Positions 37,826 through 57,666 are shown, numbered from the stretch's first letter. The stretch is 64,000 bases of DNA from Escherichia coli (GCF_011045215.1 NZ_CP049201.1); one strand, 5' to 3'. Notes: generated from the sequence alone by a model not told the origin. A program made the numbers and translations.

Positions 37826-39481
37826 TTAATCAGATTTAATCTGCGCGCGTGGTGGATATTTTTTCAGGATCTCCATATACGCGTGCATTTCGGTCTGTAG
37901 CGGTACACCCATCGGAATATGGCGCACGCCGATGGAGTCGCTTTCCTGCGGATCGGTGTAGAGGTTAAACACCGACGATCCCGCCGTTTGCATTACTGTG
38001 CCGGTGAATCCACCCTGATATCCGCTCTGGGTATAAGCGTAAGGTTGCTGAATCAGGACGTGATACTTGAACTCATCCATACGCACAGCAGCGAGTTTAC
38101 CGTTGAGGAAGTAGTGCTCGGCCTTACGGTTAGACTGACCATTTGTTCCCAGGAAGAAAGATGTCTGGTCCACACCATCGATAAAGGTGGTTTTCGGCAC
38201 TAAATTCGCCACTTTCGCGCCAGGATGCCCTGCCAGATCCAGCGCGGTAGGGAAGAGATCTGCCAGATCGACAATACCGTCAGATTTACGCGGTTGGATC
38301 ATCCCTTTCCAGTACACGAAAGTCGGAACGCGAACGCCGCCTTCCCAGGTAGATCCTTTCGCACCACGGAACGGTGTGCGTCCGTGCGGCGGTACTTCGG
38401 CTTCCGGTCCGTTATCGGAGGTAAAGACAATCAGCGTGTTATCAAGCTGACCGTTTTTCTCCAGTGCTTTATACAGATTAGCGAACACATCGTTCATTTC
38501 CACCATGCAGTCGCCATACGAGGTGCGTGCCGGAGAGCTACCCGCATATTTGGCGTTCGGGTAGTTATCGAAGTGACACCCGCGAGTGCCGTAATAGAGG
38601 AAGAAAGGCTTATCACTCTTCGCCATCTTGTCGAGGAACTTAACGCCATATTCCATCCAGCGTTGATCCAGATCTTCCATATATTTCGGCGTAATGTCGG
38701 CAATGGCCTGTTGTTCGCCGCCGCGCACCGCATGAACGTCATCTTTGCTAAATGGTAATTGCTTGATGTATTCAGAACGGTCCGGACTCAGGGCCACTTC
38801 CGGGTTTACGTGAACATCGCGCCATTCGGTGTACATATCAGACACCGAGTTAAAGCCACGGAAATCATCAAAGCCAACGTTCTGCGGCTGCGACTCTTTG
38901 TTTTCCCCCATATGCCATTTCCCGATGGCCTGGGTGACGTAGCCCTGATCGTGCAGCAGTTGCGGCAGCGTGGTTAACCCTTGCAGCCCGCCCGGTTGCC
39001 CGTACATTGGCGGCATCAGAATGCCGTGGTGGATGGAGTATTGTCCGGTGAGAATGGTGGCGCGGGTTGGGGAAGAGCTTGGTTGAGAATACGCCGAAGT
39101 TAAAATCAGCCCCTGACTGGCAACGGCGTCGATATCTGGTGTAGGGTTACCCACCGCCACGCCGCCACCGTTAAAACCGACGTCCATCCAGCCCACATCG
39201 TCCAGCAAGAAAACAACCACATTCGGTTTCTTACCGGTTTTTTTCTCAAGTTCTGCCAGCTTCTGCTGGGTTTCTTTATCCTGCGCCGGATGCTGCATTA
39301 CTGGCATCATGTTGTCGGCAATAGTGGTCGCCGGTTTAACCAGATACTGGTTTGGGTGATCGTATCCGGCAAAGCCTTTGCGTGCGGTGGCAGTTGACGG
39401 GGTATCTGCTGCGCTGGCCATGAGAGGAAGAGCGGCGGCGACAGCAACAACAAGAAGTTTGGGTGAAAACGAAAATTCCAT
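37826..39481 (-). CDS. aslA: Arylsulfatase
   Basis: 551 aa with signal peptide and sulfatase features, conserved position. Confidence 0.9.
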
Positions 39482-39905
39482 GCAAAATGCTCCGGTTTCA
39501 TGTCAACAAAATGATGACGTAATTAAGCATTGATAATTGAGATCCCTCTCCCTGACAGGATGATTACATAAATAATAGTGATAAAAATAAATTATTTATT
39601 TATCCAAGAAATGAATTTAAAAATCAGGAGAGCGTTTTCAATCCTACCTCTGGCGCAGTTGATATGTAAGGCAGGTTTATTATATCGCGTTGATTATTGA
39701 TGCTGTTTTTAGTTTTAACGGCAATTAATATATGTGTTATTAATTGAATGAATTTTATCATTCATAATAAGTATGTGTAGAATCAAGCTCAGGGTAAATA
39801 TTCACTCAGAAAGTTATTACTCAGGAAGCCAAGAGGATTACAGAATTATCTCATAACAAGTGTTAAGGGATGTTATTTCCCGATTCTCTGTGGCATAATA
39901 AACGA

Positions 39906-40113
39906 GTAGATGCTCATTCCATCTCTTATGTTCGCCTTAGTGCCTCATAAACTCCGGAATGACGCAGAGCCGTTTACGGTGCTTATCGTCCACTGACAGA
40001 TGTCGCTTATGCCTCATCAGACACCATGGACACAACGTTGAGTGAAGCACCCACTTGTTGTCATACAGACCTGTTTTAACGCCTGCTCCGTAATAAGAGC
40101 AGGCGTTTTTTTA
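39906..40113 (+). ncRNA. glmZ: GlmZ small RNA
   Basis: Sequence GTAGATGCTCATTCCATCTCTTATGTTCGCC...CGCCTGCTCCGTAATAAGAGCAGGCGTTTTTTT matches my recollection of E. coli glmZ including its terminator; location between aslA and hemY is as expected. Confidence 0.85.
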
Positions 40114-40159
40114 TGTGTCAGGAAGGCCCCGGAGGTGCTTGCCTCCGGGTGAGAAGGAA

Positions 40160-54670: not shown

Positions 54671-55435
54671 TTAACCTTTCCGCTCGACGGAAATCATGGT
54701 GACAAAAGGATAGCGTTGCCACGGGATTGCCCCGCCTTTCATATACATATGTGAAATCGTGCCATCAAGATAAAGCAGTTGCTCAACGTTCAGTTTCGCT
54801 TTGGCATAACAGGCAAAATCATAAAAATTTGTCGCCTGCTGGCTCAACAAAAACACGGCATTCCCATGTTTATTAATCCCAACACCGTTACGAATTTTAC
54901 GTGAGGCGACGTTGGGATGAATACGCGGATTAATTACACTGTTTTCCATCAACATTGGCCCTGACTGCACCGCAAACTGAATCTCTTTACTGGTTTTGAA
55001 GGCATCCAGACGAACGATGCCGACTTTATCTCCCGCGACATAAAACACGCCGCCAGGACGGATAAAGAAATTCCCTTCACCTGAAGCGAGATTTAACGCC
55101 ACCTTCTGCTGACCGTTTTCGATGTACAAACCGAGCGGCGCATAGCTTTCATCATAGATGCCGCCGTTCATCGCCATCTGCACCTGACCCTGGCTATTCA
55201 TATCCGCCAGCAGAGCATGTAAAGTTCCCCACGCTTCGCCATTGGCTTTTTGCCAGTACATTTTCACCCGCTCTGTTTGAGGATTAACGGTATACGCCTG
55301 TACGGTCAGCGTCGGATCTGAGAGTGCGCAATCATCAGCGGCAACAGCAAACAAGGGAAGTAAGGTGAGGGCGAGAAAAATCCGTTTGAGATTCAAGGTG
55401 ATCATTCCTTTACCAATGAGTAGCCGATGCGCCAT
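54671..55435 (-). CDS. yigE: DUF2233-family exported protein
   Basis: 254 aa with signal-like N-terminus, conserved position upstream of corA. Confidence 0.75.
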   Translation of the reverse strand: MAHRLLIGKGMITLNLKRIFLALTLLPLFAVAADDCALSDPTLTVQAYTVNPQTERVKMYWQKANGEAWGTLHALLADMNSQGQVQMAMNGGIYDESYAPLGLYIENGQQKVALNLASGEGNFFIRPGGVFYVAGDKVGIVRLDAFKTSKEIQFAVQSGPMLMENSVINPRIHPNVASRKIRNGVGINKHGNAVFLLSQQATNFYDFACYAKAKLNVEQLLYLDGTISHMYMKGGAIPWQRYPFVTMISVERKG

Positions 55436-55804: not shown

Positions 55805-56755
55805 ATGCTGAGCGCATTTCAACTGGAAAATAACCGACTGACCCGGCTGGAAGTCGAAGAGTCACAACCCCTTGTAAATGCAGTATGGATTGATCTTGTC
55901 GAACCGGACGACGACGAGCGACTGCGCGTACAATCTGAACTTGGTCAGAGCCTGGCAACCCGCCCGGAACTGGAAGACATCGAAGCATCGGCACGTTTCT
56001 TTGAAGACGACGACGGCCTGCATATTCACTCCTTCTTCTTCTTTGAAGATGCGGAAGATCACGCCGGTAACTCCACTGTGGCATTTACCATCCGTGATGG
56101 TCGTCTGTTTACTCTGCGTGAGCGTGAACTGCCCGCTTTTCGTCTATATCGTATGCGTGCCCGTAGCCAGTCGATGGTAGACGGTAACGCCTACGAGTTG
56201 CTGCTGGATTTGTTCGAAACCAAAATCGAACAGTTGGCAGATGAAATTGAAAATATCTATAGCGACCTGGAGCAGTTGAGCCGGGTGATTATGGAAGGGC
56301 ATCAGGGCGATGAGTACGACGAGGCGCTCTCCACTCTGGCGGAACTGGAAGATATCGGCTGGAAAGTTCGCCTGTGTCTGATGGATACCCAGCGCGCTCT
56401 CAACTTCCTGGTGCGTAAAGCGCGTTTACCGGGTGGGCAACTGGAGCAGGCGCGTGAAATCCTGCGAGATATCGAATCCCTGCTGCCGCATAACGAATCC
56501 CTGTTCCAGAAGGTGAACTTCCTGATGCAGGCGGCAATGGGTTTTATCAACATCGAGCAGAACCGCATCATCAAAATTTTCTCGGTGGTATCCGTCGTGT
56601 TCCTGCCGCCAACGCTGGTTGCTTCCAGCTATGGGATGAACTTTGAGTTTATGCCAGAACTGAAGTGGAGTTTCGGCTACCCTGGCGCGATTATCTTTAT
56701 GATCCTCGCGGGCCTGGCACCGTATCTGTACTTTAAGCGGAAGAACTGGTTGTAA
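55805..56755 (+). CDS. corA: Magnesium/cobalt transporter CorA
   Basis: 316 aa starting [19 protein letters not shown]; C-terminal YGMNF motif and two TM segments. Confidence 0.95.
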
Positions 56756-56797
56756 AAAACGAGAGCGGTGGCTTAGTCTGGCTAAGCCACCTGTTAT

Positions 56798-57178
56798 TCA
56801 AAGGCTCCAGGTATTTAACCCTTTTACCTCTTTCTCATAGAACCATTTGTTCGTGTTAACAGCAACATAGGCTGCTACGGCAATTCCCAGAATGTTAACG
56901 CCAATTAATGCACCAACAAATAGAGATAGAATGCCAAGTAATAGAACTATAATTGCTTTTTTCCATAAGCCCAGAACAAATAAATAGATCCAGGAACAGA
57001 AGAAAGCAATGAAATTCATTTGAATAGTTAATCGTTGTCTTACTTTTAATGCTTTAAATGCTGCTTTATATTCTGGTGTTGCTCCCCAGAATCCAGGAAA
57101 GCCATGTTGATCATAAAAATTAAATCGGTATTTCCATTTTTCACTTAATGAACCATCGTTCATATATTCCTTACTCAT
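56798..57178 (-). CDS. yigF: Small inner-membrane protein
   Basis: 126 aa starting MSKEYMNDGS, two predicted TM helices, AT-rich gene. Confidence 0.7.
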   Translation of the reverse strand: MSKEYMNDGSLSEKWKYRFNFYDQHGFPGFWGATPEYKAAFKALKVRQRLTIQMNFIAFFCSWIYLFVLGLWKKAIIVLLLGILSLFVGALIGVNILGIAVAAYVAVNTNKWFYEKEVKGLNTWSL

Positions 57179-57191
57179 AAATACTCCATAA

Positions 57192-57572
57192 CTATTGTTT
57201 TGATGAATCAGTAGGTGCAAGCATTAGCATACTGAAAGTGGAAAAATAACAAATCAAAAAAATCATCGAACCATTGCCTGAACAGGCAAAATCTTCGGCT
57301 ATCATTGTGATGATAGAGATGATATATACTGCTAATGTACCAAAAACATAAGTTTTTATATAGATGAAACCACTATCACGGAGTCGCTGGCAATTCATGT
57401 TGATGACGAGATAATGGAGTACGATGGTAGAGACTATAACAAGAAAACCTGCTTCCCCATCGTTAAAAAAGATAATAAGAAAGGCAAAAATGAAATTTAT
57501 TAAAATAAATGAAAATATATATCGGCGTCTGGAAATCTTACCGTTAGATGTTGGGATAAACATACGTAACAT
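57192..57572 (-). CDS. yigG: Small inner-membrane protein
   Basis: About 126 aa if started at [11 protein letters not shown]; hydrophobic; AT-rich; start uncertain. Confidence 0.6.
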
Positions 57573-57666
57573 AAATTTTACATCCTTGTGTGAGTCTCCT
57601 GTCAGCATGGCAATATGCCCACTCTCATACAAGAGTCGGCATATTTTTTCAGAATATATTTATTTT

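Follow-up and report, generated by a model that had tools for sequence, protein, structure and literature searches.

In Escherichia coli K-12, the small genes yigF and yigG lie in a stretch that is one of 78 'promoter islands' of the genome, is bound by H-NS in all three of the chromatin immunoprecipitation (ChIP) studies compiled, and has been called foreign by two independent methods (PMC3661553). A small extended protein occupancy domain (EPOD) over yigF-yigG has been shown as an example (PMC8282354), and the stretch carries a coat of H-NS, with little expression during laboratory growth (PMC3661553, PMC8282354). Here we describe the corresponding yigG-yigF stretch of another E. coli strain (GCF_011045215.1, NZ_CP049201.1), at positions 56756-57666 of a 64,000-nt sequence (hereafter the window, numbered from its first letter). 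Its AT content and A/T tracts fit those of H-NS promoter islands and EPODs, and the locus is the published example itself in another strain: genes, position between corA and rarD and gene order are the same as in K-12, and K-12-type genomes are 98.3% identical to the window over the 1601-nt corA-rarD stretch and 98.2% identical over the cassette. The window allele, with its nucleotide divergence of about 2%, belongs to a non-K-12 strain. The finding itself is already known, since the genes, their foreign composition and their silencing by H-NS are on record; the silencing proposed in a first-pass annotation of the sequence had been published for K-12 (PMC3661553, PMC8282354, PMC7229825). The present analysis adds purifying selection on both genes, a near-constant linkage of YigG with DUF2628 proteins, a cassette-swap site between corA and rarD, and a yigG start at 57572.

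Two further systems frame the comparison. In Salmonella Typhimurium and Saintpaul, deletion of yigG lowers attachment to polystyrene, spinach and tomato, and a response of the Salmonella gene to chlorine stress is also reported (Salazar et al., 2013; PMC3579871). The recombination arms of that study match precisely the end of rarD on one side and the beginning of the yigF orthologue on the other, so that a true yigG orthologue was removed. The second system occupies the same gap in other E. coli genomes and encodes DUF3289, reported to be a colicin-M-like effector of a type VI secretion system (T6SS), together with DUF943, its immunity protein (PMC11148199). Like yigGF, it is an AT-rich (GC 0.32) two-gene cassette on the minus strand, but its proteins are unrelated to YigG and YigF, and it has a toxin fold and an experimentally supported immunity partner, neither of which is found in yigGF. 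We read the stretch in the window as the yigG-yigF operon, a two-gene cassette of foreign composition that would encode a dispensable, silenced inner-membrane module with a role at the cell envelope, an explanation that we favour as a whole with modest confidence.

Composition and gene content of the corA-rarD gap

The stretch is exactly the 911-nt gap between the stop of corA (56755, + strand) and the stop of rarD (57667, - strand), two genes that converge on it. Its GC content, 0.347, compares with a whole-window value of 0.521 and is equivalent to z = -4.6 among sliding 911-nt segments (mean 0.521, sd 0.038), and the lowest-GC segment of this length in all 64 kb begins at 56791. The GC content of third codon positions (GC3) is 0.28 in yigF and 0.33 in yigG, compared with 0.56-0.62 in corA, rarD, yigI and pldA. 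Strictly rare codons (ATA, AGA, AGG, CTA, CGA and CGG) make up 5.6% and 7.1% of the two open reading frames (ORFs) against 0.7-3.1% of neighbouring genes, which is two to ten times the share of the latter, and A/T runs of at least six nucleotides occur at 4.4 per kb in the stretch and 1.2 per kb window-wide (3.6 times). The first-pass description of the pair as far more AT-rich than its flanks, with long A/T runs and rare codons, is thus borne out by the windowed calculation. Elsewhere in the window, the sole 911-nt stretches with GC below 0.42 lie at about 3011-4090 and 39171-40140, with minima of 0.416 and 0.412.

Both genes are 126-codon ORFs on the minus strand, yigG at 57192-57572 and yigF at 56798-57178. 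The closest strain, E. coli 120899, is 99.9% identical over the stretch and carries RefSeq annotations of yigF and yigG, each of 126 aa, which agrees with the gene names and approximate lengths first assigned from the sequence. The genes are separated by a 13-nt spacer (57179-57191, minus strand) from the yigG stop to the yigF start, which holds a Shine-Dalgarno GGAG at 57184-57187, and the same gene order with a gap of -4 to +35 nt is found at every related yigG-DUF2628 locus. Because of this short spacer with its GGAG, and because order and spacing are kept, the sequence supports a single yigG-yigF operon, with translational coupling being probable.

The start codons had initially been considered poorly defined. 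For yigG the ambiguity was real, with TTG 57632, ATG 57608 and ATG 57572 as candidates, but it can be resolved by the orthologues: in Superficieibacter and Enterobacter sp. E76, in-frame stops stand upstream of the position equivalent to 57572, which identifies ATG 57572 as the conserved start and gives a protein of 126 aa. An AAGGA Shine-Dalgarno sequence precedes this ATG (within 57565-57587), the 138-aa and 146-aa forms of YigG are not conserved, and the non-conserved 5' extension of the ORF (57573-57632, minus strand), which contains the alternative starts ATG 57608 and TTG 57632, is probably leader rather than coding sequence. The protein matches NCBIfam NF008474 (PRK11371, YigG equivalog) with 274.7 bits against a cut-off of 217 (E 1.3e-82), the model spanning the 138-aa form. 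For yigF, the doubt about the start did not stand, as Met1 (ATG 57178) is invariant in a 12-sequence alignment; GGAG lies six bases upstream of it, whereas Met6 is not kept: the Enterobacter sp. E76 and Salmonella orthologues have Ile at this position.

Purifying selection and two divergent alleles

Two allele classes of the cassette exist in E. coli, with about 78% nucleotide identity and 70-75% amino acid identity between them. The dN/dS ratio between these alleles is 0.16 for yigF and 0.22 for yigG, and dS reaches 1.19 and 0.64, respectively, compared with 0.13-0.15 in the flanking corA and rarD. The contrast in dS with the flanks implies that the alleles are far older than the surrounding genes or that they were imported. 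Neither a uniform GC content nor a dN/dS near 1, either of which would speak against the presence of selected foreign genes, was found, and the substitution pattern indicates that yigF and yigG are real genes under purifying selection throughout.

These ratios bear directly on the possibility that the two genes are functionless leftovers of an old insertion, rendered neutral by H-NS silencing and now decaying. Inactivated copies do occur. The yigG gene of E. coli C41(DE3), of the B lineage, has an internal stop (L003:6582-6962), and its yigF is intact and encodes a protein identical to that of the window; yigG of Enterobacter sp. E76 is frameshifted, and many truncated or partial variants of the proteins are present in databases. 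Together with absence from about 45% of E. coli genomes and silence under laboratory conditions in K-12, such pseudogenes are what decay would produce. It would hardly produce dN/dS values of 0.16-0.22 across alleles with silent sites near saturation, intact and identically ordered pairs in at least five genera, conserved loop motifs, 17 invariant residues, or the deletion phenotype reported in Salmonella, and we regard a decaying remnant as very unlikely.

The YigG and YigF proteins

The prediction of small hydrophobic membrane proteins has held up well, both sequences being hydrophobic and both AlphaFold2 models helical. The YigG model consists of four helices (pLDDT 79), corresponding to four predicted transmembrane helices, and by the positive-inside rule the charge distribution fits a topology with both termini in the cytoplasm (N-in/C-in): Lys/Arg cluster at both termini and in the loop that joins helix 2 to helix 3 (NCQRLRDSG), and Asp/Glu are found in the other two loops. 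The conserved loop motifs of the family are NCQRLRDSG and E-x-F-x-C-x-G, and 17 residues are invariant. Among 1.84 billion representative proteins, a YigG profile retrieved just 26 relatives. DUF805 (PF05656) is matched weakly by seven of eight YigG-family members, over most of the profile (positions 4-89) and with a best E of 2e-4, all scores lying below the cut-off; the window protein scores 16.7-17.3 bits against a gathering threshold of 25.7. DUF805 comprises inner-membrane proteins of the YhaH/YhaI type. In YigG, the S-R-x-x-Y at the N terminus and the R-L-R-D-S-G loop resemble what we take to be the DUF805 signature; DUF805 itself is a large family that the YigG profile does not retrieve. 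From these comparisons, the YigG family appears tiny and weakly, distantly similar to DUF805.

YigF belongs to DUF2628 (PF10947), a family with no assigned function, scoring 40.2 bits against a gathering threshold of 23 (E 5e-10, profile positions 9-91 of 93). Its AlphaFold2 model (pLDDT 86) begins with a small charged domain of about 55 residues at the N terminus and continues into a hydrophobic hairpin of long helices, and it has the invariant motifs F-x-L-G-L-W-K-K and N-x-x-x-Y-x-K-E-V-K in common with DUF2628 homologues of Pseudomonas, Pantoea and Budvicia. The two proteins as paralogues of each other were ruled out (hhalign probability 0.3%), and their sequence profiles gave nothing in the PDB with E below 0.27.

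Linkage of YigG to DUF2628 and distribution of the pair

Eight contexts of YigG-family genes were traced. In seven, a DUF2628 gene on the same strand comes directly after the YigG-family gene; in the eighth, the O157-type cassette, the companion is an unrelated membrane protein of 98/99 aa. Beyond Escherichia, the linked contexts number six and come from Salmonella, Superficieibacter, Atlantibacter/Enterobacter sp. E76, Kosakonia cowanii and, further removed, three sets of contigs, and the YigG relatives P0166, P0170, P0174 and P0148 are each followed directly by a DUF2628 gene. Most pairs lie in the rarD-corA gap, which holds them in Escherichia species, Salmonella Typhimurium, Superficieibacter, Atlantibacter/Enterobacter sp. 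E76 and Kosakonia. One pair, with a 4-nt stop/start overlap, is found beside LacI and mandelate-racemase-family (MR_MLE) genes, and this occurrence outside the gap indicates that yigG-DUF2628 moves as a unit. At least five genera have intact pairs in this order, among which YigG identity falls to as little as 31%, and the GC content of the cassette is 0.33-0.39 where computed (both E. coli alleles, Superficieibacter, yigF of Enterobacter sp. E76, and Salmonella). A survey across Enterobacteriaceae, put forward in the first-pass annotation as a check, reveals a patchy distribution, with the pair found in few genera only. The acquired islet that had been suggested from composition agrees with a low-GC cassette at the same gap across genera that is missing from about 45% of E. 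coli genomes.

DUF2628 genes outside this setting behave differently. Solo YigF-like proteins with 35-46% identity occur in Pseudomonas, Pantoea, Budvicia and others, and YigF-like genes of about 39% identity are carried on Pantoea megaplasmids. In Pseudomonas and Pantoea the gene stands alone, whereas the examined Enterobacteriaceae have yigG ahead of it, and among 73 loci of solo YigF-like genes, mostly from Pseudomonas and Pantoea, no conserved neighbour was found; apparent large neighbour clusters turned out to be overlapping or antisense ORFs in GC-rich DNA.

Matches in plasmid and phage collections revealed no link to plasmids or to complete phage genomes. Plasmid carriage was considered for four 'plasmid' records that match yigG/yigF at 95% or more and was rejected, two of them being 4.9-Mb chromosomes and two chromosome pieces. 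The latter, NZ_CP047533.1 and NZ_OY843411.1 (94-96 kb 'plasmids' of Salmonella and E. coli), hold recQ, pldA, rarD, corA, uvrD and xerC, and appear to be chromosome pieces deposited as plasmids. The phage-collection matches comprise just two unannotated records of 3.5 kb and 1.6 kb, which are taken to be host DNA. A further record, CASFSC010000152.1 ('uncultured Alistipes sp.', 1564 nt), contains YigF, RarD and CorA fragments 100% identical and a YigG 99% identical to those of the window, and is almost certainly a mis-binned E. coli contig.

This distribution matters for the earlier suggestion that the pair may be an abortive-infection or toxin-like module, in which one membrane protein would depolarise or lyse the cell and the other would hold it in check until stress or a phage infection set in. 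With two small hydrophobic genes side by side in one operon, foreign composition, patchy occurrence and the tight H-NS silencing in K-12 that is expected of potentially harmful genes, the locus has the general appearance of such a system. Yet neither protein matches any family in PADLOC or PHROGs (0 families each), the clear 'plasmid' matches are all chromosomal, the locus is not part of a recognised defence island or mobile element, and the cassette contains no toxin gene. Moreover, the partners are separable, as seen from the yigG stop of C41(DE3), the frameshift of E76, the solo YigF of Pseudomonas and Pantoea, and the O157 YigG-family gene without YigF. A toxin-antitoxin or abortive-infection pair is, in our view, highly improbable, and the suggestion is not upheld.

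Transcription signals around the operon

The published K-12 data place a sense promoter ('yigG1.2'; Warman et al., 2020) inside yigG, and the K-12 primers and promoter sequence map identically onto window positions 57272-57421 (minus strand), with the core, an AT-tract and -10 element, at 57334-57356. Activity of this promoter, which was among the H-NS-repressed intragenic promoters studied, needs the AT-tract and residue R451 of sigma-70 (PMC7229825). It could make yigF expression independent of yigG. A simple sigma-70 scan of the minus strand revealed nothing promoter-like upstream of yigG.

Both ends of the operon are bordered by hairpins. At 56767-56791, a terminator scan identified a bidirectional hairpin terminator, with 10-11 pairs on both strands, that the convergent genes corA and yigF share. 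A conserved hairpin at 57613-57644, in the interval from the rarD stop to the yigG start, has an A-tract on the rarD/yigG sense side and a T-run on the + strand; RNAfold gives -16 to -20 kcal/mol for it in both E. coli alleles, E. whittamii, Salmonella and Superficieibacter, and the inner-stem sequences vary among these genomes yet all pair. We infer that it is a terminator, and since the T-run follows on the + strand, it looks better suited to ending yigG-antisense transcription than that of rarD.

The corA-rarD gap as a site of cassette exchange

In a survey of 5426 complete E. coli genomes, yigGF fills the corA-rarD gap in 2963, about 556 of them with the divergent allele; the DUF943-DUF3289 cassette is present in 2632, and a third cassette of 961 bp, typical of O157:H7 and O111, in 1431. 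Alternative cassettes occupy the gap in the approximately 45% of genomes from which yigGF is missing, and the counts imply at least 169 genomes with both yigGF and the DUF3289 cassette. All three cassettes have a GC content of 0.32-0.35. Four haplotypes can be distinguished: type A, corA-yigF-yigG-rarD, in the window and K-12; type B, corA-DUF943-DUF3289-corA stub-yigF-yigG-rarD, in C41/BL21; type C, which resembles B with the third cassette in place of yigGF, in O157; and type D, corA-DUF943-DUF3289-rarD, as in a Nissle-type strain.

The boundaries of these arrangements are informative about how they arose. According to BLAST of C41 and O157, the final 147 nt of corA (56609-56755, + strand) are duplicated as a 'corA stub' beside the inserted DUF943-DUF3289 cassette. 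The stub is annotated as a partial CorA in other E. coli strains, and the segment presumably marks a recombination boundary of the hotspot. In Enterobacter sp. E76 (L010:6429-6910) and Atlantibacter subterranea (L017:5432-5907), back-to-back 3'-end stubs of corA and rarD are found, and these separate yigGF from a DUF3289-DUF943 cassette. Such stubs suggest that cassettes replace one another through recombination inside corA and rarD, the core genes on either side. A further trace is a remnant of yigG (codons ~13-29; 57486-57536, minus strand), of which 51-52 nt are left in genomes that lack yigGF and have the DUF3289/DUF943 cassette only. The 90-95% identity band holds about 929 genomes, with matches of 50-52 nt in the examples listed for it. 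In a type D genome, the window is matched at 57486-57536 and again from 57583 onward, in the region upstream of yigG; this pattern indicates that type D was derived from type B by deletion. A literature search on the corA-rarD hotspot returned no relevant paper.

The third cassette proved to be related to yigGF in part. In O157:H7 strain 493/89 (NZ_CP038412.1), an ORF of 128 aa lies between the corA stub and rarD (L002:6169-6555, minus strand) and is not annotated; by hhalign (probability 95.7%, E 1e-8) it is a member of the YigG family. The adjacent hypothetical (membrane) protein of 99 aa is the only product that RefSeq annotates in this type of cassette, and its comparison with YigF and YigG showed no relation to either. 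A relative of the O157-type cassette fills the rarD-corA gap alone on another contig, the two YigG-family proteins being roughly half identical as judged by eye.

In E. whittamii, an orphan DUF943 gene lies between yigF and corA (L014, about 5487-5975), with no DUF3289 effector gene. The neighbourhood of the gap varies as well: yigE, of the phosphodiester glycosidase family, is intact in the window (54671-55435), frameshifted in strain EC21Z-151 and thus itself variable, and in strain 120899 only about 255 nt separate a halogenase-family gene from ysgD (L001, ~1943-2197), leaving no room for the 765-nt yigE.

The company that yigGF keeps in this gap raises the possibility that YigG, with YigF as partner, guards the inner membrane or its periplasmic face against a competitor's toxin (a T6SS effector, colicin or microcin) and is kept without a cognate toxin in a small islet of interbacterial competition. 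The gap carries a DUF3289 effector with DUF943 immunity in 2632 of the 5426 genomes, the orphan DUF943 gene of E. whittamii adjoins yigF, and the third cassette at the same site also has a YigG-family gene. Presence/absence polymorphism with two deep alleles (dS 0.6-1.2 against 0.13-0.15 in the flanks) would likewise be compatible with such a function, as would small inner-membrane products without enzymatic domains. However, in all contexts examined, no toxin ORF lies within the yigGF cassette, as a T6SS effector-immunity pair would have, and no toxin gene adjoins it; DUF3289 already has an immunity gene of its own, and dN/dS values of 0.16-0.22 reflect purifying rather than diversifying selection. 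Furthermore, the YigF-like genes of Pseudomonas have neither a conserved neighbour nor a T6SS context, and the tight pairing suggests one machine, not two independent immunity genes. We consider orphan immunity unlikely. A broader version, of which we are more doubtful still, would treat the corA-rarD gap of Enterobacteriaceae as a competition islet, in which the YigG family with a variable small partner (YigF/DUF2628 or the 99-aa protein) would form an unrecognised class of inner-membrane immunity or protection factors against envelope toxins, exchanged among strains alongside DUF3289/DUF943.

A putative envelope module

The explanation that we prefer for the stretch itself, a silenced two-gene cassette encoding an inner-membrane module, includes a more specific functional proposal. 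YigG and YigF would form one inner-membrane complex; the module would be dispensable and act only once silencing is lifted, altering envelope or cell-surface properties, and would not be a toxin-antitoxin or abortive-infection switch. A role at the envelope or surface is suggested because deletion of yigG in Salmonella lowers attachment and because the gene responds to chlorine stress. This functional part, a dispensable complex affecting the envelope without toxin-antitoxin activity, is put forward tentatively, and we hold it with appreciably more doubt than confidence.

Several observations weigh against it. All H-NS data come from K-12 and not from the strain of the window. In Salmonella the phenotype is of modest size and was complemented only in part, and as the cat insertion is located directly upstream of yigF, a polar effect is possible. 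Absence from about 45% of E. coli, the stop in yigG of C41(DE3) and the frameshift in that of E76 show that the module is often dispensable. Finally, a conflict function would accord better than a housekeeping role at the envelope with the deep split into two alleles and with the T6SS cassette next door.

Concluding remarks

The sole published phenotype of the pair, that of Salmonella yigG, concerns a true orthologue and is perhaps confounded by polarity on yigF. At the corA-rarD site of O157:H7, the RefSeq annotation misses a YigG-family gene. Although yigG and yigF have no assigned function, they are real, selected and almost always linked genes, which justifies testing them jointly rather than singly. 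A three-way cassette-swap site that includes a T6SS effector/immunity pair moreover provides a concrete hypothesis, namely that the YigG-YigF module may protect against envelope toxins, and natural E. coli strains with and without each cassette are at hand to examine it.

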